Made by a program: the position numbers and the translations under genes | Origin: a virus | Reading direction: 5' to 3' (one strand) | Length of the DNA stretch: 64,000 bases | Virus record (IMG/VR): IMGVR_UViG_3300050821_005343 | Location: 13,862 to 77,861 of that record | Notes under the pieces: generated by a model | What the model was told of the DNA's origin: nothing | Seen by the model: only the letters and a program-made list of their open reading frames with translations | Databases searched by the model: none | Part shown: one piece after another, positions 23,541 to 57,483 of the stretch | Numbering within the stretch: position 1 is the first letter of the stretch | Layout: the number at the start of each line of letters is the position of its first letter

Positions 23541-23587
23541 TGACCCCCGCCGAACTCATCTCATGGCGCAACGATAGGAGTAAGCAT

Positions 23588-24133: not shown

Positions 24134-24323
24134 ACCAAACCGCAGCGAACCAAACCGTTGGATGTGGTTTTCGGTAGAAACGCCGTCCGTATTCAAGGAA
24201 CACAAGCTTCCAGCCTCTAGCGCTGATTGGTCAACTGCCGATCAGCGCAAGTTCCGAGAACTTGAAACCCTAGCCGAAAACTATAGCACGCACATCCATC
24301 GATCAGGATATCGGCGTGGCTAA
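24114..24323 (+). CDS. small hypothetical protein
   Basis: AGGAG RBS; 69 aa. Confidence 0.5.
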   Translation: MPMYHAEPNRSEPNRWMWFSVETPSVFKEHKLPASSADWSTADQRKFRELETLAENYSTHIHRSGYRRG

Positions 24324-27300
24324 CTCCGCAGCCGCCGGCCGCCCAAACATCTCCGCCGTCCAGCCCGACATAGACCGTACAAACGGCGCTATCTCGCCCT
24401 TATATTTCTCCCAGCCGCGCCGGAACGTAACCCCGGCCGGCCACGGCTGGGCGCGGACGACGTGCTTGGCCGACGGCTCCATTGGCACCCCGCATAGGAT
24501 GATGCGCTCAAAGCCAAGCTTGCGGGCGATTTTGACCGAAAACAGGCCGCTTGAGCCGGCCCAGTCCTCGACGTGGTGCGTGACGTTCGGCCCGCTGCGG
24601 TGTGCCCAGACCTGAGATGGCGCCGGATGACCGTTGGCCTCACGGCGTTTAAGCCAGTCAGCTAGTTTGGTTGGGTGTAGGCTGACGGCGATGCAAGGGC
24701 CGGCCGCTTGTGGAATCATGTCGTTGATGACGAATCGGGTTACTTCGCAGCCGACGCAAAGCGCCTCGGCTTCGGCCAGCTCCTCTTTGACTCTCTCGGA
24801 GCCGCCGACCACGAGGGCGATCTTGCGGGTGGTGGGCGCGACCGGCGCGGCAACACGCCCCGGCTTTGTCGCCTCGAAGCACATGGACTCGATGCGGTTG
24901 AACTTGTCGCCAATGACGCGCCCATGGCCCTCCACGCCGCGCAGGGCGGAATGGCGGCTGATGCCCACCTGACACTGCTCAATCGCCTCAAAGCCAGCGT
25001 AGCGCAGCAGGTTGGACATTACGCTGGCGGTCCACGCCATCTGGTGCCCGTGAGAGAACAGGATAGCCTTAAGCGCGCCCTTTAGCGTTCCGTCACCTCC
25101 GAATTTCTTGGCAAAGTCGAAATAGGCTTGGTCCGCCATGTTGGCGATCTGCTCAACCGATGGCACGACCACTCGCAAAACGCCACCCGGAGCCAATACG
25201 CGGAACGCCTCTTCAAAGAATCCTATGGCTTGGTGGCATGAGACGTGCTCTATGCAGTGCTCAATGAAAATGTAATAGGCGCTATTTTCTGCCCACGGCA
25301 GCGGCTGGGTTACGTCTACGTCCGCGTCGTGATTTAGCCAGCCGGATAGCTTGTTTGTGCCGCAACCGAGATTGAGGAGGAGACCGGCTTCGACCGCCGG
25401 TAAGACCCCCTTCCCTTCTTCGGACGGACCACACGCGGTCGATACTTGGGGGACCGCAGATCCTTGGCTACCGGGTTCCTTTTTCGCTGACATCGCATCT
25501 TCAAAGAACCTATCCGTAGCCCACACGTCATTGTGGCAGTGGGTGATCCAGTCCAAGCCTAAACTCAAAACATTGTCGTGCGTAATCTGATGCTTGTCGC
25601 CCCTCACGGCTTTAATCGGCAACAGAAACACATCTGATTTGATCAAGTTCGCTATTACAATTTCAGGCGTCGGAGCGACCCGCCTAGCCTTCCAGTTGTA
25701 ATTCTGAATGAATCCTGAATCCCGGACATAAGCGGTCTTGAAAACCATTAGGCCGGTTTCAATCCAACCGGCTATGTCCTTCTTCATGCCGGATACTTTG
25801 GTCGTGCAGCACTCCCGCTGCGCCTGAAGCATTTGGTCGATGAGGCCGTCCACCGGAAGGCGCAGCAGGGAGTCGCCCTCGACGTGCGCGACGTAGGTAA
25901 ATCCCTCCTCGACGGCAATCTCCAGCCCCTTGCAGAAGGCGCGGCCCCAGCCGTCTTTGCCCCCGCGGCTGAGATGTCCGACATTGTCACCAAAGTCGAA
26001 AACTCGATATTGGACCGAAGGATGCTGCTTCTTCCATGCCTCGCTGACGAGGGGCAGCGGCGAGGCGCTGTCGACCAGCAAGAGCGGAGCGCCGGGGTTA
26101 AGCGCGCTGGTTAGCTCCAGCCATTGCTCAGTGAGCGTCTGGCGAGCATCGCTGTCGACGTAGGTTGTGGCGAAGATTAGGAGCGGGGAGGTCTGGGATC
26201 GTCGCTCCCCGCCCGCACAAGAAGCAATCACAGCGCCAAGATCCCCTTGGGTGTTCGCTGCGTATCCTGTGGCACCGTGTATATGCGCGAACTCGCGCAC
26301 TTTGTCAAGTGCCGATGGCATATCAATCCGCTTGTCGCAAGGATGCCGTTCTGTGTGACAGTCGCACGGATTGACTGGATCAATACCCAGCGTCGGCGTT
26401 AGGTGGGCGCCGGCCGCTTGTGTCGTGCGGAAGCTTTCCCTCCCGCCGTAGACGACAACCGAAGGCAGTCCGACCGCTTGCGCCAGGACCGGAGCAAACC
26501 CGGCATTGAAGAAACCAATGTCGGCAATCGAGAACAAAGCCGCCATCGTCTCGAAATCAAGCTCACCGCTGTGTAACTTAACGTCGGCTGGCTGTTCTTC
26601 GCCGACTATCCACTCCAGCTTCGGCTCAAGGTCAGCAATCGAGACAACGAAATACCCAGATCTAGCCGCTGCATAGAGCGCCGCATAGGCAGCCGAATCG
26701 GGGTTTCTGCTTTCACCGTTCCACTCCCGTCGACGAACAACCGGCCGGTAGAGCATAAGCGGCTTGCCGCCCGTGTCCCACCCGGCCCGCAGCGCCTCGG
26801 CCTTCGCGCGCCATTCGGCCGGGATCGGCAACGAGAAGTCGCCCCGCTTACCCGCTAAGCCGCACTCGGCCATCATCGTCTCGAGGATAGAGCCGTAAAT
26901 ATCTATTTGCTCTTTTTTGTACCAAAGCTTGACGCGCCGAGCGTCCCCCGGTTCACGCGATGGTACTTTGAATAAATGCTGCTCGCGCTCGATCGTCTTG
27001 GATTGCGCGCGTAGTCTCGTCGACTTGAATGTTAGGTGAAGTCCCTCGGCGACGAGATCATGGTAGAGCTGCCAGTGGCACGTCGATAGCCAAACCTCGT
27101 GGGTTTGCATCAGCTCGCGCACGACGGCGCGCTGGTGCAAATTGTCGCCGATTCCCCACATGCCGTCGATGACAATGGCGGGCTTGGGCGTTCCTGGCGC
27201 GACCGCAGGCAGGACGAAGGGCGGCTGGGTGTCAACCGCCGTCACAACCATGCCGGAAGAGCGAAGCCGGTCGGCCTCCTTATCGACTAGCTCTACACCC

Positions 27301-27395
27301 TCAAGGGTCTTATGCGGCTGGAGATAGCGCTGTATGCTGCTCGCGTCATAGAATATGCGCAGGCTAGGGCTGGGGTTGCGGATGTTGTAGATCAT
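24303..27395 (-). CDS. multidomain glycan-assembly enzyme: capsid-neighbour-like N-domain + GT9 heptosyltransferase-like + GT-A-like + SAM methyltransferase + Maf/MptE-like domain
   Basis: GMWGIGDNL..PVLAQAVGLPSVVVYG..PCDC..C.KRI (GT9); LLVDSAS..HVEGD (GT-A); LNLGCG..EHCIEH..RVLAPGGVLRVVVP (methyltransferase); ALVVGGS..IND..SSGLFSV..GFERIILCGVPM (Maf/MptE-like). Confidence 0.8.
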   Translation of the reverse strand: MIYNIRNPSPSLRIFYDASSIQRYLQPHKTLEGVELVDKEADRLRSSGMVVTAVDTQPPFVLPAVAPGTPKPAIVIDGMWGIGDNLHQRAVVRELMQTHEVWLSTCHWQLYHDLVAEGLHLTFKSTRLRAQSKTIEREQHLFKVPSREPGDARRVKLWYKKEQIDIYGSILETMMAECGLAGKRGDFSLPIPAEWRAKAEALRAGWDTGGKPLMLYRPVVRRREWNGESRNPDSAAYAALYAAARSGYFVVSIADLEPKLEWIVGEEQPADVKLHSGELDFETMAALFSIADIGFFNAGFAPVLAQAVGLPSVVVYGGRESFRTTQAAGAHLTPTLGIDPVNPCDCHTERHPCDKRIDMPSALDKVREFAHIHGATGYAANTQGDLGAVIASCAGGERRSQTSPLLIFATTYVDSDARQTLTEQWLELTSALNPGAPLLLVDSASPLPLVSEAWKKQHPSVQYRVFDFGDNVGHLSRGGKDGWGRAFCKGLEIAVEEGFTYVAHVEGDSLLRLPVDGLIDQMLQAQRECCTTKVSGMKKDIAGWIETGLMVFKTAYVRDSGFIQNYNWKARRVAPTPEIVIANLIKSDVFLLPIKAVRGDKHQITHDNVLSLGLDWITHCHNDVWATDRFFEDAMSAKKEPGSQGSAVPQVSTACGPSEEGKGVLPAVEAGLLLNLGCGTNKLSGWLNHDADVDVTQPLPWAENSAYYIFIEHCIEHVSCHQAIGFFEEAFRVLAPGGVLRVVVPSVEQIANMADQAYFDFAKKFGGDGTLKGALKAILFSHGHQMAWTASVMSNLLRYAGFEAIEQCQVGISRHSALRGVEGHGRVIGDKFNRIESMCFEATKPGRVAAPVAPTTRKIALVVGGSERVKEELAEAEALCVGCEVTRFVINDMIPQAAGPCIAVSLHPTKLADWLKRREANGHPAPSQVWAHRSGPNVTHHVEDWAGSSGLFSVKIARKLGFERIILCGVPMEPSAKHVVRAQPWPAGVTFRRGWEKYKGEIAPFVRSMSGWTAEMFGRPAAAELATPIS

Positions 27396-28357
27396 GGCGT
27401 CGGGTAGGTTCCAGTGTATGCATTGGAAGCAACAGGCGGGCCGCCAAACTTGTAGAATCCCGTACCTGGGGACACTGAATAGATGCCGAAATTGTAGTCC
27501 GGCGGAGGATTTGGAACAAAATAGCCAGCAGCATCAAAAGATCCGCCGGGGAACCGCGCTCCCCCTACATAGCTCACCTGAAACATTGATGGCGTAGACG
27601 GCCAGACAACAGGTGTCGAGCCCGCTGTAGATTTATCAACATTTAGGGTTAAGGAACCACCGCGGAATAAGCCAACCCGAGAATACGTCCCGCCCTCTAT
27701 TACAGCAGGATGAAAGCCAATAAAAGAATACAGTGCGTCATCTGTGGAGGGGGTCGTATCAAGGACGGTTGCGACAAAGTGCGTCGTGGATGTTGGCCCT
27801 GGATCGTTGAGCGGGTTTTTGGGCTTGATGGGGAACCGTGGGTCATTCTCGTCAAAAAAATAAATAGACTTGGAGTATAGACTAATGCCGACAGGAGAGG
27901 GCCACGGGCCGGTGGCTGTTTGAGGTTGGCTGCGGTCCTGAGATATGCCAGTACCCACAACAAGCTGCGTATATCCATCAGGCAGCTCTGGCGCCCCCGT
28001 TCCCCACACATAATCGGTCGTATCATCAGCCTGATCAGTTAGCGAAAACTGGACCGAGGATTGCAGGGAGCTAACGTCAAAAATAAATGTTCGGATATAT
28101 TCGTTTTGGGTAAGATCGTCTACCGGGACGGGGATTGTTTGCAAGTTATTCAGAAGCTCAGCCCCCGAAGGGGCGTTATTGGTTATCGTAACACTTACCG
28201 GCTTAACGGTATTGAAGAGGGCTGGGTGAGCCACTGAATTATTATTGATGATCAAATCAGACCACTCGAATATGACCAAAAGCAGATATGCCCCCCAATT
28301 GACGTTGACGATCATCTGAAGCGGGTCAAGCCTATACGGCGGATTGATCTTCGCCAT
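27392..28357 (-). CDS. tail-tip / receptor-binding-associated protein
   Basis: N-terminal RLDPLQMIVNVNWG; AT-rich; at the end of the tail module. Confidence 0.55.
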   Translation of the reverse strand: MAKINPPYRLDPLQMIVNVNWGAYLLLVIFEWSDLIINNNSVAHPALFNTVKPVSVTITNNAPSGAELLNNLQTIPVPVDDLTQNEYIRTFIFDVSSLQSSVQFSLTDQADDTTDYVWGTGAPELPDGYTQLVVGTGISQDRSQPQTATGPWPSPVGISLYSKSIYFFDENDPRFPIKPKNPLNDPGPTSTTHFVATVLDTTPSTDDALYSFIGFHPAVIEGGTYSRVGLFRGGSLTLNVDKSTAGSTPVVWPSTPSMFQVSYVGGARFPGGSFDAAGYFVPNPPPDYNFGIYSVSPGTGFYKFGGPPVASNAYTGTYPTP

Positions 28358-29151
28358 CAGAGATGCACCGGCGTTAAATCGTTAGTGAGGCCGCCAGTCG
28401 TGACGGTGAACGACCCGCTCCCTCCGAGCGTGTTCAGGCGGAACGTCGAAGCATTGCCTGACAGCATGACGGCCGGGTGCCCTAATGCGGCGATGGCTGT
28501 CGATGGATTGACTGGTGCACCGCTTGCGTCGATGAACAGCCTGCGTGTTTCGAGCGGGATGTCTCCGCCGCTCTCAAGAAAGGAAATCCCCGGCCAGAAT
28601 GAAAAGTCCGCCATTGAACCGAAATACGGATCGCTCTGTCCATCGTTGCCAACCCAAAATGGCAATCCGTTTGCCAATGGAATGACGTCCGTGTTCGTAT
28701 CTGTTGTAAAAAGATCAATGACTTGCGCGTTATTAACGTAGAGCTGAAAGAAATGGGGCGGAGCACCAGTACCTTCCACGCTCCCAATCACATGGCACCA
28801 CGCTCCAGCAATAAGAGTTGGGTTGCCACCAGTGTTGTATCCCACCTGTATCGATCCGCTCGTCTCTGCTGCGATGAAATTAAGTTGTTCTGGTGTCCCC
28901 TGAATAGCGAAGTTAGTCCTTACATGAAAATAGTTACCGCCATTGGCGGTCGGGTCAACCACGAAAGGAACGGAAAAGCTTAAATCAGATGATGTTGGCC
29001 TAAACCATCCGGCAAAGCTGACGAAGTTGTTGTCGGTGCTTGTGAGCGAAGAATTGACCAACGTCGTTGTGCCGCCGAAGGTGACGGCGTTAGCCTGATA
29101 AGTGACGCCAGAGTGTCTGCGGCGTTCGCTGGCGGTAATGCCGGGGATCAT
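28357..29151 (-). CDS. LamG/ConA-like tail fibre or receptor-binding protein
   Basis: SFAGWF..WCHVIGS..LYVN..FWVG..FGSMADF. Confidence 0.65.
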   Translation of the reverse strand: MIPGITASERRRHSGVTYQANAVTFGGTTTLVNSSLTSTDNNFVSFAGWFRPTSSDLSFSVPFVVDPTANGGNYFHVRTNFAIQGTPEQLNFIAAETSGSIQVGYNTGGNPTLIAGAWCHVIGSVEGTGAPPHFFQLYVNNAQVIDLFTTDTNTDVIPLANGLPFWVGNDGQSDPYFGSMADFSFWPGISFLESGGDIPLETRRLFIDASGAPVNPSTAIAALGHPAVMLSGNASTFRLNTLGGSGSFTVTTGGLTNDLTPVHL

Positions 29152-29152
29152 G

Positions 29153-29974
29153 CTATGCTCCGGATGTTGGCTCTAGGAGGCCGAACAGATCCCATTCGTC
29201 GGCGGCTACTTTCTTGATCGTGCAGGTCGCGCCCTCGGCCGCCGTCTCGTCAAGGAATCCGGTTACTCCGTTCAAGACTACGGGCGATGATCCAACAAAA
29301 CTGATTCCGGCTGCATTCGCCTGCCGAAAATGGATTTCAGTTCCGATTGAAAAATTGACAGACGTATCAGCAGGGATGTGTACCGTGCAGCCGCTGGAGT
29401 TGGTCAGTCGATTGTAGGTGCCCGCGTCGGTGAGTGCGGGTGTGAATGACGTCCCGGTTTTAGTCTGGACCGGAGAGCCTGCAGCGCCGGGGGGCTCCCA
29501 CGCCACGTCAAAGTCAGTTCCCGAAACCTTGGTCAGCACTTCGCCGGTAGAGCCGCCTGTCGGCAGCGCCTCGCTTGGGTTACTCAGCAACAGTCCGTAA
29601 AAGTCAGAGCCGCTGCCGTTGTTGGCTCCAGGATCGAAGGTTCCATCGCTGGTATGGCCGATGAGTACAAGGTAGGTTGATCCACCTTCAGTGATAATGT
29701 CATTGGCGCTATAGACGGTGTCGGGCGCCCAAGCGCCGCGGAACGTGAAGGTCGCAGTCGGCAGGGTGACTGCCGGAAGAAAGGTGCCGTCGGTGAGTCG
29801 GGTCTGAAGTTGGTTGTTCGAGACCACCGCCATACTGGCGACGCCAGCGCCGGTCGCTGCTTTGGCGTTGATCAGCCCAACGAGAGTGAAGAAGTTCTCG
29901 TCGATCTGCGCAGCCGCAAGGTCGCTGCCCTGGCCGCCGCCCCATGCGCCGGGGGTTCTGTAGATGACCGTCAT
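29153..29974 (-). CDS. tail fibre protein with CBM5/12-like motif
   Basis: AAQIDENF; RGAWAPDTVYSANDII..GSTY; LPTGGSTGEVLTK; C-terminal adaptor ending WDLFGLL. Confidence 0.7.
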   Translation of the reverse strand: MTVIYRTPGAWGGGQGSDLAAAQIDENFFTLVGLINAKAATGAGVASMAVVSNNQLQTRLTDGTFLPAVTLPTATFTFRGAWAPDTVYSANDIITEGGSTYLVLIGHTSDGTFDPGANNGSGSDFYGLLLSNPSEALPTGGSTGEVLTKVSGTDFDVAWEPPGAAGSPVQTKTGTSFTPALTDAGTYNRLTNSSGCTVHIPADTSVNFSIGTEIHFRQANAAGISFVGSSPVVLNGVTGFLDETAAEGATCTIKKVAADEWDLFGLLEPTSGA

Positions 29975-29996
29975 TTAGTTTCCCGTTAATGCTATT

Positions 29997-30049
29997 TTTA
30001 GCTTGACATGCAATCGCATTTGTGCGAGTGTGGCTTTGTTGAAACGGAG
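29997..30049 (+). promoter_or_regulatory. repeated moron promoter/RBS, copy 2
   Basis: TTTAGCTTGACATGCAATCGCATTTGTGCGAGTGTGG..TTGAAACGGAG. Confidence 0.75.
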
Positions 30050-30068
30050 TTGATGACGCGGGTCTAGG

Positions 30069-30272
30069 GTGAAGGAAGCTAAAGCAAGAGCTGAATTATA
30101 CCGCCGCTAACGCAAAGACTTCGTTTCAACATTGACCCAGACCGAGCAGGCAGACCAAATGCGCAAGCGCGCGAAACACAATCCTGATCACAACTGGCAC
30201 GTATTCGCATATTACGACCACTTATTGGCGCTTAGAGCCTCCGCCAAGGTAGTCAAATCCAAAATGACCTAG
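30069..30272 (+). pseudogene. decayed moron ORF
   Basis: 68-codon frame VKEAKARAELYRR*RKDFVST..KMT* with an in-frame TAA at 30108. Confidence 0.4.
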
Positions 30273-30916
30273 GTCTGTTCTATGGCGTTCACTACGTCCT
30301 CGTTCTTCGGGACGTAATCGGACAATTGCCCGTTGACGGTCGGCGGGCTTGGAGGCGGTTCTGTCGCCATAGACGCATCGAAGGTCGGCACGGCTGCCCA
30401 CAGCAGCTTGAAGTGGGTCGGAATCTCTGCCTGAAGAGACTGGCTTGTGTCCTGCTGACCCGCGATCAGGACCGGATAATATTCGTCCCAATCAACCGGC
30501 TTGCTCATGTCTAGCGAGGAAACGTCAGTATTGTGGACCGTCACGACGTCGGCCTTCCGAAGGTCATTCGTGGCGCCGTTCTTAAAGGCGTAGTTGGTAG
30601 CCTGCCCGTTAACTGAACTCGTCAACTTCATCTTCTCAATGATGTCGATATCAATGCTCTGCGTGCTGTCGTCGGGATTGGTGACGGTTAGCTTCGATGT
30701 TTTGCGTTGGGTGTTCGGGCCGTTGTCGCCTTTCCAACCATCGGCCCATTTAAGGACGTGGTTGGTGTCTTGGCCGCCTGTACGGAAGTCTAAATCTGCA
30801 TTGTCGATGCGCAGCACGTCCACCCAGACATCGCTGGTCGGGTCGTTGTTCTGGTAGATTCTGATTACGTGCGCCTTGCGGATTTGGTTGAGGAGGGGCA
30901 TAATCCGCCTTGACAT
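30269..30916 (-). CDS. tail-associated hypothetical protein
   Basis: Internal repeats RK..V....N.D.....D; located in the tail module. Confidence 0.6.
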   Translation of the reverse strand: MSRRIMPLLNQIRKAHVIRIYQNNDPTSDVWVDVLRIDNADLDFRTGGQDTNHVLKWADGWKGDNGPNTQRKTSKLTVTNPDDSTQSIDIDIIEKMKLTSSVNGQATNYAFKNGATNDLRKADVVTVHNTDVSSLDMSKPVDWDEYYPVLIAGQQDTSQSLQAEIPTHFKLLWAAVPTFDASMATEPPPSPPTVNGQLSDYVPKNEDVVNAIEQT

Positions 30917-30944
30917 TGATCTAAAAGTTGCGTACCAAGCCTCG

Positions 30945-31026
30945 GCGCGCTACGCACGGGTCCAACGCCTCATCCGCAGTGGTGAGCGTGAGCCCTGAGT
31001 GATCAGGGCTTGCCAGCGTAGCGCGC
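30945..31026 (+). ncRNA. putative structured small RNA (three-way junction)
   Basis: 11-bp outer stem GCGCGCTACGC/GCGTAGCGCGC; inner stems CGC(C)TCA/TGAGCG and AGCCCTGA-GTGA-TCAGGGCT; TTGACA at 30910; operator at 30928. Confidence 0.6.
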
Positions 31027-31027
31027 G

Positions 31028-31249
31028 CTAACCCGCCTGCTCAACCTCCACCGCCGCCTGATCACAGTAGAGCGATATGGTGCAGGAGAACGACGTGTTG
31101 AACGTCCGGACTGAGCCCACGGACGCCCCCTGCCCTGCCTTTACGATGATCGGCACTTGCGAGGACTGACCAGTCTGCGGCAGATAGAGGTCCGCAGGGG
31201 CGTTATTCGGAAGCTGGAAGAAGCGGACAAAGTCTTCTATTGCGGCCAT
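31028..31249 (-). CDS. small tail protein
   Basis: 73 aa, coupled to 31249. Confidence 0.55.
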   Translation of the reverse strand: MAAIEDFVRFFQLPNNAPADLYLPQTGQSSQVPIIVKAGQGASVGSVRTFNTSFSCTISLYCDQAAVEVEQAG

Positions 31250-33897: not shown

Positions 33898-34388
33898 ACT
33901 TCCTGCAAAACGACTTCCCAGCTATAGGTTGCTGGGTACTCCGCAAAGCTGTTCTTGATGTCCATTACCATCATGGTCAGGAGCGGACGATAGAAGGTGA
34001 AAGCCCCCTCGACATAGCTCGAGCCGGAGACTTCCGGGCGGGCGGGAGTTCCGCCTGTCAGGTAGTTCAACTCTGCAGCGCATGCGACGGAGATAATTTG
34101 CCCTAGCCATGCATCGTCCAGGGCTGGCGTCTCTACATCGCGGCATGTGACGACGCTTTGGTACTTGCGAAGCTGAACGGGAAACATGTTGATGAGGAAC
34201 CCGTTAATATCGCGTCGGATAAAGGTTCCTGCAGCCCGGCCGTCCCCGTTAACTGTGGCGATCGGCTCTAGGGTCTGCGTCACTCCTCGAGCGGCAAATG
34301 GCGTAAGAGTTAGTGCGTGGCCGCTTTCCGGCGCGAAACTAAGCAGCGTGACGGGAGGTAGGATACCAGGCGGCATCAGGAGCCCCAA
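33894..34388 (-). CDS. distal tail protein-like
   Basis: ARGVTQTLEPI..RRDING..RKYQS..FYRPLLTMMV..W...LQEV, directly after the tape measure. Confidence 0.65.
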   Translation of the reverse strand: MGLLMPPGILPPVTLLSFAPESGHALTLTPFAARGVTQTLEPIATVNGDGRAAGTFIRRDINGFLINMFPVQLRKYQSVVTCRDVETPALDDAWLGQIISVACAAELNYLTGGTPARPEVSGSSYVEGAFTFYRPLLTMMVMDIKNSFAEYPATYSWEVVLQEV

Positions 34389-39376: not shown

Positions 39377-39940
39377 CTATTTCACCTTTCCAAGTCTAGT
39401 TTTGAAGAACTCGCCCGCCCGCGCCGCAACAGCGCGAGCGATTTCAAACGTATGGAATTTCTGCGGAATCGTGACCGAAGACTTGCCGAAATACTTAGGT
39501 TCTGCGGGCTTCTGGCCAAAGGAGAACAGAAGCGGCGCTTTCCCACCCCTGCGGTCAACCCGGAATAGTGGGCCATAATCACGCGCCCGCTTGCCGATCG
39601 CGTCGGCGGCAAAGGACAAGGGAATCCAAAGCATCGGCTTGCCTTGGATGGTGGTGGTTTTGGTGAACGTGCTGAAATACGGAACTTGATGGTCGATATC
39701 GAGCCGGATGTTGCCGCCGCCTTGGGTGACGTTGGCGGTGAAGCCGTCTGTCCAGCGGGAACCGAACTTACCGGCCCCCTTGATGTCCTCGCCAGCAGCT
39801 TTGATGAAAGCTGTGGCGATATCGTTCGCAGTCGCTCGCATGATGTCGCGGGTGACGTCGCCGCCTCGCGCGGTTCCGCGCGAAAACAGCGGCCCGGTGC
39901 GCTGTTCCTTGAAGTATGTCCTTACAACGTTATCGGGCAT
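39377..39940 (-). CDS. tail completion / neck-like protein
   Basis: Basic 187-aa ORF just before the tape measure. Confidence 0.55.
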   Translation of the reverse strand: MPDNVVRTYFKEQRTGPLFSRGTARGGDVTRDIMRATANDIATAFIKAAGEDIKGAGKFGSRWTDGFTANVTQGGGNIRLDIDHQVPYFSTFTKTTTIQGKPMLWIPLSFAADAIGKRARDYGPLFRVDRRGGKAPLLFSFGQKPAEPKYFGKSSVTIPQKFHTFEIARAVAARAGEFFKTRLGKVK

Positions 39941-39980
39941 TGTGTTATATGGTGTTTCTCATGCAAGATGTGGAGGTGGC

Positions 39981-40496
39981 ATGAAGCCCAAAAAGCGCAT
40001 GGACCGGCGCAAGGCGTTAAGCCACATACTCTCGATTTCCAGCGATCCGGATTTCATCACAGGAGCCAAAGAAGTGCTTGCACGCAAGCCGTTCGACTAC
40101 GGACTACGCAGCGATAAATCTCAGGTGAGATACGAAAACGGAAGGCTGATAGCTATCCGGGTACTTCAATCTAGCTTGTGTTTCTTAGTTATGCTTGCGC
40201 TGTGGGCCATCCCGGCACTGGCGCAGCAAAAGTGGTGGGCATTGGTGCGGGGCGAAGGCGACGTTTTTAGCACCTGCACCGACCATCCACCGGTCGAATC
40301 CCCGGCCAAATGGCACGAGGGAGCCTTGGCGAATGGATGGCCTGCGCAAATAGTTGATCAGGGTGATGAGGTTAATGTTTATACTATCAGCGACGGAAAA
40401 CAAATTAAGGTGTCTTATTTCCGCACGCAGGATGCCTGCCATAAGGCTGCTCAAGCCAATATCGACGAGAATGCGAAAATGGACAAGTACCGCTAA
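39981..40496 (+). CDS. antisense moron membrane/exported protein
   Basis: GGAGG RBS; internal hydrophobic segment ..ALWAIPALA|Q; two-Cys C-terminal domain. Confidence 0.6.
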   Translation: MKPKKRMDRRKALSHILSISSDPDFITGAKEVLARKPFDYGLRSDKSQVRYENGRLIAIRVLQSSLCFLVMLALWAIPALAQQKWWALVRGEGDVFSTCTDHPPVESPAKWHEGALANGWPAQIVDQGDEVNVYTISDGKQIKVSYFRTQDACHKAAQANIDENAKMDKYR

Positions 40497-40726
40497 AGCT
40501 CCTTCTCCAGCTTCTTGAGTTCCTTTTCCAGTTCTTCCTTTTTAACTCTCGCCCCCATTGTCGCGGCGGTTATGCCGTCAACGAGGTCTCGGATGCGCCT
40601 TCGCTCTCCGAGGAAGGCGTGCGCGGCAAGCTGTCTGGGGGTAAGTCCGAAGACCCACTCTTCGTCTTGTCCGGCAGCGATGAGGGCTGCCGCGGCCTCT
40701 GCGAGGTCGTATCCGGGGCCTTTCCA
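40493..40726 (-). CDS. gpT-like -1 frameshift extension of the tail chaperone
   Basis: Slippery T-GGA-AAG at 40726-40720; the -1 frame reads KGPGYDLAEAAAALIAAGQDEEWVFGLTPRQLAAH..KKLEKEL*. Confidence 0.65.
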   Translation of the reverse strand, partial: WKGPGYDLAEAAAALIAAGQDEEWVFGLTPRQLAAHAFLGERRRIRDLVDGITAATMGARVKKEELEKELKKLEKEL

Positions 40727-41133
40727 GTTTCGCCCTTGACTGCCAGCCCCAGAGCCCTCAGTCGGGCGTCGAAAGGGCCGAAGCCGCGGGTGAACGTCGC
40801 CTTCCCAATCGCCTCGAGCAATTCGCTTTGTTCTTCGATGGTCAGGTCGGCGGCGGCCTCGATCTGCTCTAGGTCATCCCCCTTCTTAAATCCCATGGCG
40901 ATTATGAGCGGGATTGCGTCCGGCGCAGTCTTCACTATTTCGCCGACAGTGACAGGCGCTCCCATGAAGAACTTCTGCATGGGAACGAATTTCTCCATCA
41001 GATCGCCGACGTTGCCGGTCGAGAGTCCGACTACTTCAGACTCTCGACCGTCAGAGAATGTCACGACCTGCGCCTTGCGGCGCAGATCGAGCAACCCCAA
41101 TTTATCTGGGGCTTTAATATCTTTCAGTTTCAA
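40570..41133 (-). CDS. tail assembly chaperone (gpG-like)
   Basis: Lies between major tail and tape measure genes. Confidence 0.7.
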   Translation of the reverse strand: MKLKDIKAPDKLGLLDLRRKAQVVTFSDGRESEVVGLSTGNVGDLMEKFVPMQKFFMGAPVTVGEIVKTAPDAIPLIIAMGFKKGDDLEQIEAAADLTIEEQSELLEAIGKATFTRGFGPFDARLRALGLAVKGETGKAPDTTSQRPRQPSSLPDKTKSGSSDLPPDSLPRTPSSESEGASETSLTA

Positions 41134-41177
41134 AAAGGTTGCTCCCTTTTAATGCCACTTATTTCTTACTATGCAAC

Positions 41178-41726
41178 TCAGAGGTCAGCGAAATTCGCGC
41201 AGGTGAAGCTGCCGAAGCCTTCGACCGAATCATGCTGCACGTCGCAGGTGATCGACAGCTTCTGCCAATCTCCCGAGCCGGCGGCGATGAGTTCAAACGG
41301 CTGGTCAGGCGTCAGAAGAACGAGCGGGAAATGCGCATTCCACTTCGGGCCGGTGACGTTCGCATCGGTAAAGTTCAACGTCGCATAGAACAGCGGGTTG
41401 CTCATCGGAATGATGCTGGCCGAGCCGGAATCCTGAGGTAGGCCGAGGAGCGCCAAGCCCATGTTGCGGGCCGTGATTTCCTCGAGTTCGATCATCAGAG
41501 TAGCCTCGAGCCGAGTCGCGACCGAGCGGTCCTTGATCTGCACGCCTTGACGTGAGCTGTAGTGATGAAGCAACGTCGGCTTGACCTGGAATTTTGCCGA
41601 AGTAACGTTGCCCATATCGAGGGCGCCGTGACCGTCGTTCAAATCCATAGTCATGAAGCCGCGGCCGACGCGATAGTCGCCGATGTTGGGGGAAGTGGTG
41701 GTGGGTTGAATTACGCCAATGGGCAT
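41178..41726 (-). CDS. major tail tube protein
   Basis: AAAGGA RBS; Y.VGRG..DMGNV..LHHYSSRQG..KD..LEEITARN. Confidence 0.8.
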   Translation of the reverse strand: MPIGVIQPTTTSPNIGDYRVGRGFMTMDLNDGHGALDMGNVTSAKFQVKPTLLHHYSSRQGVQIKDRSVATRLEATLMIELEEITARNMGLALLGLPQDSGSASIIPMSNPLFYATLNFTDANVTGPKWNAHFPLVLLTPDQPFELIAAGSGDWQKLSITCDVQHDSVEGFGSFTCANFADL

Positions 41727-41748
41727 TTTAGTTGTCCTTTCTGGACAT

Positions 41749-41772
41749 AAAAAAAGCGCCCACTGGGCGCTT
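41749..41772 (-). terminator. Rho-independent terminator upstream of the major tail gene
   Basis: Minus strand AAGCGCCC-AGT-GGGCGCTT-TTTTT. Confidence 0.65.
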
Positions 41773-41826
41773 GATTGGAGGGTTGTTGCGTGGTAAGCCA
41801 CGGCGCGCAGAAGAAAGGCGACGCCT

Positions 41827-42048
41827 GTGTTAGAAGATTGGTTTGACGAGCCGTCAGACGATCCGTGGACCCAAGGATACAGAACTTGGTGTAAGGGCCA
41901 CTCAGCCTGGGAAGACGGCTACGGGTTTGACGAGAAACGGTTTGGCATTGACACCAACCCGTGTCCCCCATCGAGTCCTGATCACTTGGAATGGCAAAAG
42001 GGTTGGGGAACCGCGCTTGATGACTATATTGCCGGCCTATACGCCTAA
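41827..42048 (+). CDS. Rmf/CrpP-fold small protein (ribosome modulation factor-like)
   Basis: AWEDGY..NPCPP....LEWQKGW; own promoter/operator at 41771-41800. Confidence 0.55.
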   Translation: MLEDWFDEPSDDPWTQGYRTWCKGHSAWEDGYGFDEKRFGIDTNPCPPSSPDHLEWQKGWGTALDDYIAGLYA

Positions 42049-42049
42049 C

Positions 42050-42553
42050 TCAGGGCCGGATTGGTGTTAGCCAGTAGCGGAAAGAGTAACGGACGAGTAA
42101 TCGGCCAAAAAGCGTCATAGACTCTGGGTCCATGTCCGTATATGAGCCGAGATAGGTGATCTGGCCACTAGGACCAAGAATAGAGATTAGAGTCGGATCG
42201 TTCTCAATGGCGGCTCGCACGCTCATGCGCCACTGAGATATTTCCGGACCGATAGGGGCCGCAACCACAGTGCCGTTCGGCCCGTCTAACGTTAGGTTTG
42301 TGGCATCCGAACGCGGCTGTGGAACAACGACGATATGCGGCTTGAGGTTGATAATACCGCCAGGAAACCTTACCGACTTATTTCTGACCGCCTCGTCGGC
42401 CATGGTATTGTCTTCTTCGCCGTCGAGCAGAATGATGGCCGGAAGTTCCATCGTGCTGAAGTCTCCGCGATCACGATAAACGCCAGCAATTCCCGAGACG
42501 CCAGAAAGAAGGGTTTGTAGCTGCTCGAGGATGGCCTCGCGGGTGTCGCTCAT
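42050..42553 (-). CDS. tail terminator-like protein
   Basis: MSDTREAILEQL..LPAIILLDG. Confidence 0.65.
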   Translation of the reverse strand: MSDTREAILEQLQTLLSGVSGIAGVYRDRGDFSTMELPAIILLDGEEDNTMADEAVRNKSVRFPGGIINLKPHIVVVPQPRSDATNLTLDGPNGTVVAAPIGPEISQWRMSVRAAIENDPTLISILGPSGQITYLGSYTDMDPESMTLFGRLLVRYSFRYWLTPIRP

Positions 42554-42954
42554 GCGCGCACCGGCAAGAACCAATAGACAGGTACGCCGCTCATATTCAC
42601 CGGCACCGCCGGCTCCATAAGCTTTAGCGTCTCTTCGACTACCGGAGGATCGGTCCACGGAAACTTGTAAACAAGCAGGGATTCACGTTCGTGGTCAGGC
42701 GGTCCCGCAGGAAGATCGAGCGCGCCAAACAACGCGCGCCTAACCAGCGGATCGTAAGCCTTGCCGAAGATGTCCTGCACGCGCCAGCCGGTTAGGACAA
42801 CGCGGCACTTCCTAAGCGCGCCAGTCTTATTGGAGCGCAGCGACGCTGGCCTGCCATAGCGGGCAATCATCCGCTGGACGGTCGCCTGCGCTCTTGCGTA
42901 GTCGAACCGCGAAGCGGTGGGGTCGTCTATTGTAGGAGAACCTAGGAGCGTCAC
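42550..42954 (-). CDS. head closure / head-tail joining protein
   Basis: FDYARAQATVQRMIARYG; position in the neck module. Confidence 0.6.
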   Translation of the reverse strand: MTLLGSPTIDDPTASRFDYARAQATVQRMIARYGRPASLRSNKTGALRKCRVVLTGWRVQDIFGKAYDPLVRRALFGALDLPAGPPDHERESLLVYKFPWTDPPVVEETLKLMEPAVPVNMSGVPVYWFLPVRA

Positions 42955-43031
42955 AGGACGATGCCCATATTAGCGCAACGAGATCACGTAACAGGCCAGA
43001 CCATAGCAGCCCATGAAAATGAAAAATGGCA

Positions 43032-43403
43032 TCAGCATATCGCCACGGCCGGGAAGTTAATTCGCATCAAGTTGACGAATCTAATGCCGTAATCGGTTGT
43101 ATTGTAATCGCTGCGGTCGCTGGGATCTGGCTGCGACGGCTGGGCATAGGTGACGGAGAAGTCGCTGCCGATCTTCTCGCTGGTAATCTGCTGATTAGTG
43201 CCGCTCTGCTCGCGCTGAATCGCCACCATCAGGTAGTGGGCAGCGAGATAAGAGAACGCCAGCACGTAATAGTCAGCCATCCACGTCGTCACGTCCATGA
43301 TCAGGGACGCTTCCTCGATGGCAAACTGGACGCGCGCGTCATCCTGATGCCTGAATTCAGGAAAGCGGATTTTGACCGAGGTGGCGTCGATCGGGAAGGG
43401 CAT
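43032..43403 (-). CDS. head-tail adaptor (DUF4054-like)
   Basis: FPEF..DDARV..YLAAHYL..SEKIGSDFSVTY..TTDYGIRF. Confidence 0.8.
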   Translation of the reverse strand: MPFPIDATSVKIRFPEFRHQDDARVQFAIEEASLIMDVTTWMADYYVLAFSYLAAHYLMVAIQREQSGTNQQITSEKIGSDFSVTYAQPSQPDPSDRSDYNTTDYGIRFVNLMRINFPAVAIC

Positions 43404-43432
43404 TGACAATCCAAAAAGTGCGTGGTAAGCAA

Positions 43433-43543
43433 CACGAGTCAGGTGGCTTATGCCCAATGACTCGAAACCGGGAGGCTGAAATGAACCCGGCCGGTGCAAA
43501 GACCGGCAACCGGAGGGCGTCCGAAAGGGCGCCCTTTTTGTTT
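43433..43543 (+). ncRNA. putative small RNA with three hairpins and a terminator
   Basis: TTGACA at 43403; operator at 43418; stems CGAGTCA/TGACTCG, CCGGG/CCCGG, CCGGT/ACCGG; terminator GGGCGTCC-GAAA-GGGCGCCC-TTTTT. Confidence 0.65.
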
Positions 43544-43546
43544 CCC

Positions 43547-43789
43547 TTAAATCCCGAGCGCCGTTCCCAACGCTGGCGGCGACCAGCCTGGATCAGTCAC
43601 GCCCTTGGACAGCGGCCCGTTTTCGCGGAACACCTCTGGCGAGCCGTGCCAGGCGTTGATTTCAGCTTCCGCGCGTGTTGGATCAAGACGGCCGTGTTTG
43701 GTCACGACGGTATGCCCCGCGGCGGTATTGATTTGATTGTAAAGAAGATTGAGGTCGAGGATCGACCATTGAGTGACGACGCTCGTCAT
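43547..43789 (-). CDS. hypothetical protein
   Basis: 80 aa, coupled to the upstream gene. Confidence 0.5.
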   Translation of the reverse strand: MTSVVTQWSILDLNLLYNQINTAAGHTVVTKHGRLDPTRAEAEINAWHGSPEVFRENGPLSKGVTDPGWSPPALGTALGI

Positions 43790-44166
43790 GGGGAGCTTCC
43801 TTCAAGGTTGGCGTTGATCGGCGAGGCGGTCACCGTCATGATTCCAGCAACCACGGTGGCGGGATTTCCCCCTGCATCGACCGTCGTCGCACTGTGATAG
43901 TAATTTCCGAGCAGGGAGATGGTGTCCTCAATTACGAGGCTGACCACGAACGTATCAGGGGGCGATGCCGCAATGACGATGTCTCCAGGACTGCCGGTCG
44001 ATTTCACGATGATTGGAACTAGCGAAGTCACGCTGCCAGATGTCTGGCTATAGGCCCGCCAATTCACCGTCGCGTTGACGAGCGAGATGCCGTCAGCGGG
44101 ATCGAGATGAAAGGTTACGTTAAGATTATCGCCCGCGGCGATAGGGAAATTCTGGAGCGCTGGCAT
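43786..44166 (-). CDS. BppU-N-like Ig adaptor (virion)
   Basis: AGDNL.VTF..ISL..ATV.W..FVVSL...DT..L.G.YYH. Confidence 0.6.
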   Translation of the reverse strand: MPALQNFPIAAGDNLNVTFHLDPADGISLVNATVNWRAYSQTSGSVTSLVPIIVKSTGSPGDIVIAASPPDTFVVSLVIEDTISLLGNYYHSATTVDAGGNPATVVAGIMTVTASPINANLEGSSP

Positions 44167-45027
44167 TTAGTTTGACTTCCTTCCAGCACGGAGTTGCGGG
44201 CTGTCTCGGTCGGCTAGAAGAAAAGGCGAATCCCGGTCAGCGCGTAGGTTTATGTTGCGGGGTGGGACCACAATCTGGGGTCGTATTGAGAAAGCAAAGA
44301 TATCGGCAGTTTCAGTTAGCGACAGTTCTGCCTGATTGTCGTTAAATCCAGCGAAAGCAAAGGAATCGGCCGCTTCCGTGAGGGCGAACGAGACGGCGTT
44401 GGCGTTAAAGGTAACTAAGGCGAAAGCGTCAGGCGGCTCAGTGAACGCAAACGATGCGCTGATGATGTCGGACGCATTAAACGAAAAGACGTCTGGCTGC
44501 TCGGTGACGGCGAACGAAGCGCTATTGACATCAGATGCGGCGAAGGCGAAAGAGTCCGCAGTCTCTGTTACTGCGAACGATGCTTGGTTGGAATCAGTAG
44601 CCGCAAAAGCAAAGGCGTCTGCGGCTTCCGTAACCGCAAATGAAACGCTATTAAGATTGGCGGCAACGAAGGAGAATGCATCCGCCGCCTCTGCGACAGC
44701 TAAGGCTGCTTGGTTAACGTCCGTCGCGGCGAAAGCAAAGGTATCTGCGACTTCAGTGACTGCGAAGGATGCGTTATTTGCGTCAGAAGCCGCGAAAGCG
44801 AATGTGTCTGCGGCTTCAGTAACGGAGAATGATGCGCTGTTAACATCCGTCGCGGCAATGGAAAAAGTATCAGCAGGCTCCGTGACGGCAACGGACGCAT
44901 TGTTGACATCTGCGCCGACGAAAGAAAAAGTATCAGACGGCTCTGTGAGCGCCAGGGTCGCCTGATTAGCGGGCGACGAGGCAAGAGAGCTTACCGGCGC
45001 TTCTGATACTGCTTCTAGCCCAAGCAT
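44167..45027 (-). CDS. head/neck fibre-like protein with ~11 tandem 21-aa repeats
   Basis: Consensus xASFAVTExADxFAFAAxDxN; S/T/A-rich. Confidence 0.75.
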   Translation of the reverse strand: MLGLEAVSEAPVSSLASSPANQATLALTEPSDTFSFVGADVNNASVAVTEPADTFSIAATDVNSASFSVTEAADTFAFAASDANNASFAVTEVADTFAFAATDVNQAALAVAEAADAFSFVAANLNSVSFAVTEAADAFAFAATDSNQASFAVTETADSFAFAASDVNSASFAVTEQPDVFSFNASDIISASFAFTEPPDAFALVTFNANAVSFALTEAADSFAFAGFNDNQAELSLTETADIFAFSIRPQIVVPPRNINLRADRDSPFLLADRDSPQLRAGRKSN

Positions 45028-45044
45028 GGCAGCCCCTGCTTAGG

Positions 45045-45965
45045 TTAGTGTTGGTACCAAGACTTTAGGGTGGCTGCAATGGCGGCTGTTTGCGTCCCGA
45101 TAGCTCCTGTATTGAAATCTATAAATATGCCTACATTTGTATAGCCAGACGTTCCTAAATAGCCAGAAGATTTTGCTACTGTAAACAACTGGATAAAACT
45201 TACCCCATCAACTGAATTGGAGAACGTTACATTAGTCCCGTCGTCGCTAACTCGGAAATAAACCTCTGATGGCGAATATTGGAAAAACACCGGCCCGTAA
45301 TCAGTCGCGGTAAATGTTGTCGCGTTTGAATAATGCTCAACTACAAGTTTGTTTACAATTGGTGCCGAATTGGTAACAAATACTTCCATCGCCTGGTATT
45401 TTGTCCCGTCTGTCCATCCCATGCCAAACGTATTATTACCATCCGACGGCCCGTAAACACTAAGTGTAGCATCTATTGTGTACGGGGTTGATGGGGACGC
45501 AATCGTCATGCCCCTCAATATAATGCTGTTCTGACTCGCCGTTTCCTTTAGAAATGGACCTATCGGACTGTCGACAAGACTCGTAGTGCCCGCAAAATTT
45601 CGCTGCGTCCAGTTGGCTGCTAGTGGAGGGGCTACGCGAGGCGGGTGGCGCAGCGCCGAGGCCGGCTCCGTCAGAAAGACGGTGCTGGTGCCGGTAAGGC
45701 TGACAAGGACTCCGGGACCACTTGAGCCGTCCAACACATTCGCAGCCGTTCGCGTTAGCGTTGTCCCACTCAGAGTATAGGTGCTGGCGCCCTGTATTTC
45801 CCAACCTGTGCCGTTGCCGCTAATGATGCAAATATTGCACTGGTTGCCGTTGCCGACGACGGCAAACGATTGGAACCCCGTCGCCGCCCCAGCAAGGGTC
45901 AGCGTGCCGGTTCCTGTTGTCGCGGTCGTTTCTTTGACGCGATCCGCAATGACTAGGCCGGTCAT
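45045..45965 (-). CDS. fibre protein with lectin-like C-terminal domain
   Basis: ADRVKETTATTGTGTLTLAGAATGFQSF N-domain; AT-rich ConA-like C-terminus. Confidence 0.65.
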   Translation of the reverse strand: MTGLVIADRVKETTATTGTGTLTLAGAATGFQSFAVVGNGNQCNICIISGNGTGWEIQGASTYTLSGTTLTRTAANVLDGSSGPGVLVSLTGTSTVFLTEPASALRHPPRVAPPLAANWTQRNFAGTTSLVDSPIGPFLKETASQNSIILRGMTIASPSTPYTIDATLSVYGPSDGNNTFGMGWTDGTKYQAMEVFVTNSAPIVNKLVVEHYSNATTFTATDYGPVFFQYSPSEVYFRVSDDGTNVTFSNSVDGVSFIQLFTVAKSSGYLGTSGYTNVGIFIDFNTGAIGTQTAAIAATLKSWYQH

Positions 45966-45968
45966 TGG

Positions 45969-46394
45969 TTACGGCCCAGGCGCGGTCGGGACGATCTGCG
46001 ACGTCGACACCCAATCGGCTATTACCTGGTCAAGCGCCGGAACTGGTTTAGGATTTGGGTCTGTCACAATATCGAAGAAGTAAGTAATTGATGTGATACC
46101 AATACCTGAGATGGTGACTGGGATGCTGGTCGACGCCAGCACTAATGGCGTCAGTTGGATGCGATAAGCTACACCCAAAGCCGGATTCTGTACTACCATA
46201 ACAGCCCCAAGACTATTCGGCAGTCCGCTAGTTACTGCGGGATTAGAACCGGCGGGAGGAGTCGTGCTACTTACGCCATTCGTGACGAAGGTAAGCGGCG
46301 GCGAGGTCCAGACTTTGTCGTTGAATATTACAAGATTTGCCATGAGGATCTCTCCGCTTATAGGATTGCCGGAAACCGAGGACTGAGAAGGCAT
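45969..46394 (-). CDS. virion-associated hypothetical protein
   Basis: S/T/P/V-rich; probable start MANLV. Confidence 0.55.
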   Translation of the reverse strand: MPSQSSVSGNPISGEILMANLVIFNDKVWTSPPLTFVTNGVSSTTPPAGSNPAVTSGLPNSLGAVMVVQNPALGVAYRIQLTPLVLASTSIPVTISGIGITSITYFFDIVTDPNPKPVPALDQVIADWVSTSQIVPTAPGP

Positions 46395-46400
46395 TACGCG

Positions 46401-46814
46401 CTACGGGCTGGTAATAGTTCCCGAGGTGACGCTGACCGGAATGCCGGTCGAAAACGTCGTTGTGGTTACAATGATGCTCGTCGCGCTGGTGCCGACCGTG
46501 AGTCCGCTAACGACGGTATTGCCGGCGCTGTCACGCAATTCAGCCAGAGCCGCCGTGCCGTTGGCGGCTGGAGTTGCTGAGAGCGGTGTGCCCTGCAGCG
46601 TCGCCACTTTTGAAGCAACCGTGAAGGGGGGCGTGGAAGTCAGCGTGACGGTAGCCAGCACGCCCGTAGCGCCGGAAAGCCCAGAGGTGCCGATGACGAG
46701 CAAGCCACCTCCAGCAGTCTGACCATTGACCGAGACGCCCGCCGCAGTGCCGGTGGCGTTATAGGTTTGAGTAAGCCGGGCATTGGCCGCGGCGGTAGAA
46801 TAGGCGATAGCCAT
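46401..46814 (-). CDS. head fibre / decoration structural protein
   Basis: YSTAAANARL..LATVTL..GTAALAELRDSAG..LTVGTS..VSVTSGTIT. Confidence 0.65.
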   Translation of the reverse strand: MAIAYSTAAANARLTQTYNATGTAAGVSVNGQTAGGGLLVIGTSGLSGATGVLATVTLTSTPPFTVASKVATLQGTPLSATPAANGTAALAELRDSAGNTVVSGLTVGTSATSIIVTTTTFSTGIPVSVTSGTITSP

Positions 46815-46818
46815 GACC

Positions 46819-47127
46819 TTAGCCCTCTATGGGTTGTTTTGGAGGACGCCCACGACGAGGCGCTATAGTGACGGCCTCGTCTGGGTCCGCGTGAAGAACG
46901 GCCGGAATGTCAACCGGCTGGACACGCTGCGGCTTCACCACCGGATCTCGTTCCGTAATCTTGAGATCCGGCCGGATGGCGCGCTTTAAGATGGAAACCA
47001 CATGCTCTGCGAGCTTCACGCCCACGCGGGTCTCGCCGGGGTCGATGCTGATGGGCTTAAGATTGCTAATCCCATCATAGAATGTGCGCCGACTGGCGGT
47101 CGGGTTGTGAATATCGCAGAGGATCAT
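46819..47127 (-). CDS. capsid-adjacent small protein (paralogue of the N-domain of 24303..27395)
   Basis: IHNPTASRRTFYD..IDPGETRVGVKL; C-terminal AT-hook-like RRGRPPK. Confidence 0.7.
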   Translation of the reverse strand: MILCDIHNPTASRRTFYDGISNLKPISIDPGETRVGVKLAEHVVSILKRAIRPDLKITERDPVVKPQRVQPVDIPAVLHADPDEAVTIAPRRGRPPKQPIEG

Positions 47128-48122: not shown

Positions 48123-48257
48123 TTTGTATTTCTCCTGGCCCGCGGCTCTTAGGCGCAGGGCTGAAATGTGAATGGGGGTTTGTGATGCAAAAACTTGCGT
48201 ATGACGCAACGTCTTACGCAAGCCTGTAGGTTTAGTTGCGTGGGCGCGAGCTTAGGT

Positions 48258-50177: not shown

Positions 50178-50230
50178 CGCCCTGCTTTCAAGATATAGCG
50201 TGGTATGCAATTTTTAGGAGGAAAAAAAGA

Positions 50231-57282: not shown

Positions 57283-57483
57283 TTAATGCCCCACAGGCTG
57301 TCTAAGCGCCCAATCCCAATAGTCGGCGATGGTCACAGCCACTGGGTCGTCAGAGAGATCATTGGCCCCAGCCTTGTCGCAACAATAGGCAATGCCCGAA
57401 CCTTGGCACTCGGGGCAAATCTTGGTCCCATCCCAACAGACCGACCCTCGATAGCCTTTACCGTAGCAATCTGGACAAATCAT
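57283..57483 (-). CDS. small DnaJ-type Zn-finger protein
   Basis: CPDCYGKG..CPECQGSG. Confidence 0.6.
   Translation of the reverse strand: MICPDCYGKGYRGSVCWDGTKICPECQGSGIAYCCDKAGANDLSDDPVAVTIADYWDWALRQPVGH

Follow-up and report, generated by a model that had tools for sequence, protein, structure and literature searches.

Mycobacteriophages are an established case of virion glycosylation by phage-encoded enzymes (Freeman et al. 2023, cited in PMC12619734). This is the nearest established system to the one described here, and the nearest enzymes are those of glycosyltransferase family 9 (GT9) and TibC. The present system was analyzed in a window of 64,000 nucleotides, bases 13862–77861 of the 77,861-bp IMG/VR record IMGVR_UViG_3300050821_005343, which has direct terminal repeats and is rated complete. 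In this window the N-terminal domain of a 1030-aa multidomain transferase recurs in a small protein encoded directly after the major capsid gene. The likeness to Che8-type mycobacteriophages is that phage glycosyltransferases are expressed with the structural genes; there the glycans are found on capsid and tail-tube subunits, as summarized in PMC12619734. The mycobacteriophage systems differ in having unrelated enzyme families, Gram-positive-type hosts and separate small enzymes, and the system described here is known from sequence alone. As far as we are aware, virion glycosylation has not been demonstrated outside mycobacteriophages, and neither a dedicated addressing domain nor a paralogous head protein is known to us from their system.

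TibC assembles as a dodecameric ring in which a 97-residue N-terminal β-barrel is packed on the catalytic domain, and it carries an iron finger of four conserved cysteines (Cys339/342/358/370) inserted in the C-lobe (PMC4358343). The phage enzyme resembles TibC and AAH, the bacterial autotransporter heptosyltransferases (BAHT; PDB 4rap/4rb4), in its predicted GT-B fold (Z 19.1), and has a conserved Cys/His cluster at a comparable place in the C-lobe. By this likeness, ADP-heptose is predicted to be the likely donor and a protein the likely acceptor. In TibC the barrel is packed and the metal ligands are four cysteines, whereas the phage enzyme has a 55-residue domain on a low-confidence linker and a C-x-C-H...H-x-C cluster. 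It also has three more catalytic domains, and lipopolysaccharide (LPS) heptosyltransferases score as well as TibC against it. The D3/PAJU2-type Pseudomonas phage cassette (PAJU2 gp10–gp12) and a Mesorhizobium prophage have homologous GT9-like (~30% identity), methyltransferase and sialyltransferase/Maf-like units among their head genes. These units, however, occur in split genes or in another domain order, with no N-domain and no small paralogue, and with a capsid of the ClpP–capsid fusion family. The C-terminal capsid-binding domain of T4 Hoc offers a parallel as a small conserved anchor joined to variable payloads (PMC10385173), but it has no sequence or fold similarity to the domain described here, whose payload consists of enzymes and whose binding to capsids is a prediction. 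Giant-virus glycans are reviewed in PMC9614988. PBCV-1 A064R likewise combines several glycosyltransferase domains with a methyltransferase in one viral polypeptide and decorates a capsid protein, but PBCV-1 is a eukaryotic virus, the domains are unrelated, and none of them is an addressing domain common to a capsid-adjacent protein. What this locus adds is a paralogue encoded after the capsid gene, statistics over the whole family, fusions to single modules, a correlation with capsid type, and heptose genes inside the window.

The N-domains of the enzyme and the small protein are homologous, which sequence profiles and structure models together make secure. The open reading frame (ORF) of the 1030-aa enzyme lies at 24303–27395 (−), and the 102-aa ORF of the small protein at 46819–47127 (−) starts 8 nt past the stop of the PF09950 capsid gene. 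Direct comparison by BLASTP gives 14 identities in 40 positions with an E-value of 0.002 for a single comparison, which is marginal alone. The large enzyme has more than 180 homologues, many of them ~1000 aa long and encoded on 72–82-kb contigs, and most start with the same motif. A hidden Markov model (HMM) was built from the N-termini of 52 enzyme homologues, leaving out the protein of this phage (P0001) and its closest relative. This HMM matches all 11 of 11 small post-capsid proteins over ~60 residues, with scores of 58–65 bits and E-values of 2e-22 to 3e-20. The topology predicted by AlphaFold is identical in the two copies (strand-strand-strand-strand-helix-strand), with a predicted local distance difference test (pLDDT) score of ~90. 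The model of the full enzyme (pLDDT 88) has a low-confidence linker after the domain, and the small protein has a disordered tail in the same place. Numbered as in the small protein, Asn8 and Arg14 are invariant or almost invariant across the two paralogue classes, and Asp18, Pro30-Gly31 and Leu47 are also kept in both. A chance resemblance or a DNA-level repeat was considered and rejected: the DNA alignment has no shared upstream element, and conservation is seen at the protein level between phages whose capsids are 57–63% identical. An earlier sequence-only reading of this locus had described both ORFs as we find them, had picked out the shared motif correctly at its conserved Asn, Arg and Asp positions, and had related the N-domains by a pairwise alignment; the relation is much stronger than that match suggests. 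It had named a lack of profile or structural similarity between the two domains as evidence against itself, and both kinds of similarity were found.

Exactly two copies of the domain each are present in nine of nine related records, eight of them rated complete, that have an enzyme carrying the N-domain (hereafter tagged) and a PF09950 capsid. In these nine relatives the large enzyme begins with one copy, and a small ORF directly after a capsid gene whose product is 57–63% identical to that of this phage holds the second. The earlier reading had proposed a survey of related phages for the same fusion; in these nine records the tagged enzyme occurs together with the small post-capsid paralogue. 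An HMM scan of the present genome revealed exactly two copies, that of the enzyme and that of the small protein. Pattern scans of IMG/VR with small-protein alignments returned three fragmentary records. These are more divergent, and in each the gene of the small protein again comes straight after one for a PF09950 capsid. In L073 the capsid gene is itself preceded by those of a PF22758 cement protein and a DUF2213 protease. The small copy therefore stands directly after a PF09950 capsid gene in 13 of 13 loci, including two divergent subfamilies. All nine tagged-enzyme records with an assembled head region have a PF09950 capsid, compared to none of ten IMG/VR records with a related enzyme that lacks the N-domain, and none of these ten has a copy of the domain anywhere. 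This pattern fits a tag that is specific for the PF09950 head type.

A profile search of 1.84 billion representative proteins gave 126 clusters with the domain, most of them proteins of 80–160 aa in which the domain is terminal and is accompanied by a low-complexity tail. With its ~55 residues, among them an invariant Asn and Arg, the domain represents a previously undescribed family. It has no Pfam, PHROG or PDB sequence-profile match. Foldseek against the PDB (best E 0.06, to PsaD) and a VIA-wide structural comparison (best Z 4.5) gave nothing clear, BFVD gave unnamed proteins only (best E 2e-3), and the ESM Atlas gave viral hypothetical proteins only. A tblastn run with two of the small proteins matched no cultured phage among 50,697 phage records. 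In other family members the domain is joined to a Maf-like C-domain only (P0171, P0138), to a GT9-like domain only (P0157, P0214), to GT9-like and Maf-like domains (P0176), singly or in duplicate to a different GT-A-like module (P0187, P0136), or to an unknown 290-aa module (P0152, P0200, P0205), and in the fragment P0224 it lies between a Maf-like end and the next transferase. Since the domain is carried separately by each polypeptide of the pathway, it looks like an addressing or assembly module and not an acceptor. A rival view, which we think quite unlikely, is that the domain is a glycan acceptor or homotypic tether, with the enzyme copy pairing with or mimicking the small protein as the true glycoprotein. 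The conserved Asn/Arg hairpin loop would then be the modified site, and glycogenin-style self-modification of the enzyme would be possible. The invariant N8 and R14 do flank this loop in both classes, the GT-A domain is similar to glycogenin, which glucosylates itself, and to GT8 enzymes that act on proteins, and the two copies strictly co-occur. Separate enzymes each with its own acceptor, however, would not build one composite glycan, and the loop contains no invariant Ser or Thr; we also count against this view that we know of no GT9 or GT8 enzyme that modifies Asn or Arg. This alternative overlaps with the model that we favor.

The best reading of these data, which we consider evenly balanced between right and wrong, is that the domain is a head-addressing tag for a heptose-type virion glycosylation machine. 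A fuller version, in which the 55-residue tag addresses specifically the capsid lattice of PF09950-type heads and recruits fused or split glycosylation enzymes, each bearing its own tag, to capsids under assembly, so that phages of Gram-negative hosts coat their heads with a methylated heptose-containing glycan, is more tentative. In such a mechanism the domain would be a portable addressing module. On its own, followed by a disordered tail, it would make up the small protein of the head module, the product of the gene immediately past the PF09950 capsid gene; placed on a flexible Pro-rich tether, it would let the glycosylation enzymes find the same partner during head assembly. The most likely partner would be the lattice of PF09950 capsid and cement proteins, or else the small protein attached to it. 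Working in the cytoplasm, the four catalytic domains could then furnish head proteins with a methylated glycan of several sugars, with the acceptor and the order of reactions being assumptions of the model. The GT9/TibC-like domain would probably add heptose from ADP-heptose, which the HldA/HldC/HldD-like enzymes of the phage may help to supply. The earlier reading had proposed docked head glycosylation of this kind, and the proposal is partly supported. Homology, copy number, synteny, the correlation with capsid type, the modular fusions and the placement of untagged enzymes in head modules speak for it, and the Hld-like genes for the heptose; the GT9-like fold does not tell TibC from LPS enzymes.

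Several observations weigh against this head-addressing interpretation. The nine tagged records belong largely to one clade, and the 9/9 versus 0/10 pattern is therefore not a set of independent events. The identity between the copies is 28.7% within a genome and 28.3% between genomes, and these equal values give no support for co-adaptation. The small protein has no profile or fold match to cement or decoration families (PF22758, PF09956 and others), and its tail is not Ser/Thr-rich. A distance of 20 kb separates the enzyme gene from the head genes, and translational coupling links it to tail-fiber-like genes, which makes tail proteins a possible target. Domains of GT9, GT8 and Cst-II-like type also make up a classic LPS-core set.

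The interest of the domain is that it provides a testable handle on how virion-glycosylating enzymes find their structural targets. It is common to a capsid-adjacent protein and to every polypeptide of a glycosylation pathway, and it tracks one capsid family in many uncultured soil and water phages. If the fuller capsid-lattice version is correct, this would be the first enzyme-targeting system for virion glycosylation. Binding of the domain to the PF09950 lattice would explain how glycan coats are built on the heads of Gram-negative phages, with a bearing on immune recognition, stability and phage-therapy pharmacology, and would provide a natural cargo-display tag for capsids with solved structures (E217, Pam3, XM1). 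Even if the docking is wrong, a new domain family of 126 clusters has been defined.

The catalytic part of the enzyme consists of four predicted domains (Table 1). For the GT-B domain, VIA gives Z 19.3 to 3tov (278 residues aligned, root-mean-square deviation 3.8), 19.1 to TibC, 17.7 to WaaF (1psw) and 16.2 to WaaC, and the fold is superposable on WaaC/WaaF. No Pfam family was found at E ≤ 5 for residues 73–380, and the Glyco_transf_9 threshold was not reached. A GIGD motif is invariant in this domain. In the C344-x-C346-H347...H351-x-C353 cluster, C344 and C353 are invariant and C346, H347 and H351 are nearly so. The cluster lies roughly where TibC has its four-Cys iron finger; the ligand set differs, so that we regard this as a resemblance and any equivalence as putative. 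The GT-A domain matches WbbM, GlyE, LARGE1, UGGT and glycogenin (VIA Z 14–15), and its H504-x-E506-G507 motif is invariant, with D508 nearly so, which makes it from the alignment a candidate acidic metal-binding motif. The S-adenosylmethionine (SAM)-dependent methyltransferase domain scores 22.8 and 27.2 bits with PF08241, above the cut-off of 21.2. The C-terminal domain is homologous to a domain in Paracoccus phage Pkon1. PF01973 matches it in 4 of 11 members with E 0.009 and 16 bits, against a cut-off of 34.6, and Cst-II with E 2.6 on a GSSG...G motif; these values fall short of placing it in the Maf or GT42 family, and the resemblance is a lead. NeuB was searched for and not found. Of the domain assignments made in the earlier reading, the GT9-like (Z 16–19), GT-A (Z 14–15) and methyltransferase (PF08241) ones agree with these results, as does the Pro-rich linker after the N-domain, while the Maf/MptE-like one is only weakly supported.

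The GT9-like fold does not separate protein-directed enzymes of TibC type from LPS heptosyltransferases (Z 19.1 versus 19.3 and 17.7). The enzyme may act late in infection or during lysogeny on the LPS core or O-antigen of the host envelope, remodeling it so as, for instance, to prevent superinfection or to keep progeny from sticking to debris; the N-domain would then have an unrelated role, such as folding, oligomerization or membrane-proximal localization. GT9 (WaaC/WaaF, Z 16–18), GT8-like and Cst-II-like folds are the standard set for the core of LPS or lipooligosaccharide, ADP-heptose genes would serve this purpose equally well, and some sources annotate homologues as ADP-heptose:LPS heptosyltransferase. 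We nevertheless consider envelope remodeling unlikely. It leaves unexplained why separate enzyme modules share a domain with a capsid-adjacent protein, why this domain tracks the capsid family, and why domain-less versions of the enzyme lie between capsid/cement and head-tail genes, and the enzyme model has no membrane segment or signal peptide.

These domain-less versions occur in phages of other lineages. In a prophage of a Mesorhizobium chromosome, a 959-aa ORF holds the enzyme with the Maf-like domain first and no N-domain. The gene order is terminase, lambda-type portal, ClpP–capsid fusion, Phage_cement_2, the enzyme, a 147-aa ORF, an FkbM methyltransferase and a head-tail attachment protein. 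Pseudomonas phage PAJU2 has the split cassette gp10–gp12, annotated as sialyltransferase, GT9-like hypothetical protein and methyltransferase, between its head-closure and tail-terminator genes, and Psp6 has GT9-like and methyltransferase genes after its capsid gene. The retention of the enzyme set among head or head-tail genes in three lineages with different capsids points to a role related to the virion. In the clade of this phage the gene of the enzyme has shifted to the tail operon's end and carries a copy of the head-module domain. The enzyme ORF follows tail-fiber-like genes that lie ~20 kb downstream of the head module in transcription order, and its ATG overlaps the stop codon (ATGA) of the preceding gene, a 321-aa ORF at 27392–28357.

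The three Hld-like genes in the window (Table 1) support heptose as one sugar of the product, as far as sequence similarity can tell, and do not indicate the acceptor. GmhA was searched for and none was found in this phage. ADP-heptose genes are present in only two or three of ten relatives, so that most must rely on the host pool. In one relative (G002, the record of L004), positions 19013–20855 encode a GmhA-like SIS protein together with an HldE-like protein of 469 aa. This makes its ADP-heptose pathway more complete than that of the window; the genes lie far from its enzyme gene.

The small protein is a separate gene and not a frameshift or read-through extension of the capsid protein, because its frame relation to the capsid gene varies between loci. 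It is also distinct from the PF22758 cement protein, which has its own gene at 48258–48785. Two further identities were rejected. YqbF (PF14553) offers a positional parallel and a structural match (2hjq, Z 3.9) that is within noise, but its Pfam model matches neither copy; the model gives a sub-threshold 15.7 bits in a 99-aa frame outside the window, close to the left genome end (G000:C1:786-845, −), that is unrelated to both. Pam3 gp08, encoded after the Pam3 capsid gene, is not homologous. The tail of the small protein ends in an AT-hook-like RRGRPPK (46837–46857), of which RGRP is kept in close homologues only. Such an end could bind DNA. The domain could also be a capsid-loading signal through which the small protein and the enzyme are packaged and ejected into the next host. 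The N-terminal position of the domain on a flexible linker, the RGRP-type basic ends of several divergent small proteins and the location of the small-protein gene among prohead genes agree with such loading. Four sugar- and methyl-transfer domains with a donor supply, however, suit the stepwise building of a glycan and not an ejected effector. The AT-hook is moreover limited to sub-clades, many tails are acidic or absent, and no cleavage motif was identified, so capsid loading appears decidedly improbable to us.

The AT-hook-like end would also suit a DNA-associated partner of an enzyme that glycosylates and methylates phage DNA, and phage glycosyltransferases that hypermodify DNA are known (10.1101/2023.12.21.572611). 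This possibility is very remote because no hydroxymethylase-type enzyme was found: a thymidylate-synthase-type hydroxymethylase was not found in the genome, and neither was a TET/JBP enzyme, for which the control was uninformative. The GT9/GT8 folds, the heptose supply and the placement in head modules are also unlike known DNA glycosylation systems.

Table 1. Coordinates of the enzyme domains, head-module genes and heptose genes in the window
Feature	Position	Strand	Evidence
Enzyme N-domain, residues 1–55; four strands, helix, strand; N7 and R13 invariant	27231..27395	−	HMM; AlphaFold2 pLDDT ~90
Pro-rich flexible linker, residues 56–72	27180..27230	−	pLDDT ~61, no secondary structure
GT-B domain, GT9/TibC-like, residues 73–377	26265..27179	−	phrog_6804 (function unknown) E 2.5e-35; Foldseek TibC/GT9; VIA
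GT-A domain, GT8-like, residues 402–639	25479..26192	−	VIA Z 14–15; Foldseek
Class I SAM-dependent methyltransferase, residues 670–845	24861..25388	−	PF08241; phrog_6636; PDB 8k76 E 4e-4
C-terminal domain, residues 856–1030, weakly Maf/MptE/Cst-II-like	24306..24830	−	PF01973; Cst-II
Small protein N-domain, residues 1–60, paralogue of enzyme N-domain	46948..47127	−	BLASTP; HMM; AlphaFold
Small protein disordered tail	46822..46947	−	pLDDT 50–57
Major capsid protein	47136..48221	−	PF09950, E 1.4e-76
Cement protein, E217 gp24/Pam3 gp6 type	48258..48785	−	PF22758
Head maturation protease/scaffold	48888..50210	−	phrog_530 E 1e-87
HldD/RfaD-like ADP-L-glycero-D-manno-heptose 6-epimerase	57480..58382	−	PDB 1eq2 E 2.1e-47
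HldC-like nucleotidyltransferase	58605..59069	−	PF01467; PDB 5x9q E 2.6e-21; 3glv "LPS core biosynthesis protein"
HldA-like D-beta-D-heptose 7-phosphate kinase	59449..60435	−	PDB 4e84 E 1.9e-48; PfkB

The capsid ORF as listed starts with a TTG 33 codons upstream of an ATG (MYSFRDGGG...). The first residue in its Pfam match is 108, and the alignment with relatives sets in at about residue 50; the true start is probably the ATG at residue 34, and the annotated start too long.

Among eight divergent small proteins (P0140, P0145, P0147, P0150, P0213, P0226, P0228, P0238) there are recurring short C-terminal motifs of two types, P-x-L-G-L-P...KK and the AT-hook-like RGRP(R/P)K also seen in this phage, which may be short linear binding motifs. 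Other homologues of the small protein have a helical C-terminal segment recalling HeH/SAP domains, for which Pfam found nothing. Among P0136, P0139 and P0231 some have tandem pairs of the N-domain, and in one subclade the domain of the small protein is C-terminal behind a disordered N-terminal extension.

PDB sequence searches with the ORFs at 17376–18419, 18490–21432 and 60761–62095 gave nothing useful. Just upstream of the enzyme gene, the region 28357–29974 (−) encodes Laminin_G_3 (lectin-like) and CBM_5_12 domains and has tail-fiber PHROG matches. Just downstream, at 21835–23289 (−), lies a gene whose 484-aa product joins radical SAM, SPASM and methyltransferase domains (PF04055, PF13186, PF13489). 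The product has no N-domain; given that SPASM enzymes often act on peptides or proteins, a place in the same tailoring pathway is possible. Between this gene and the enzyme gene, a 222-aa ORF with an HTH_3/MqsA-like helix-turn-helix (23465–24133, +) is alone in opposing the direction of the surrounding late genes.

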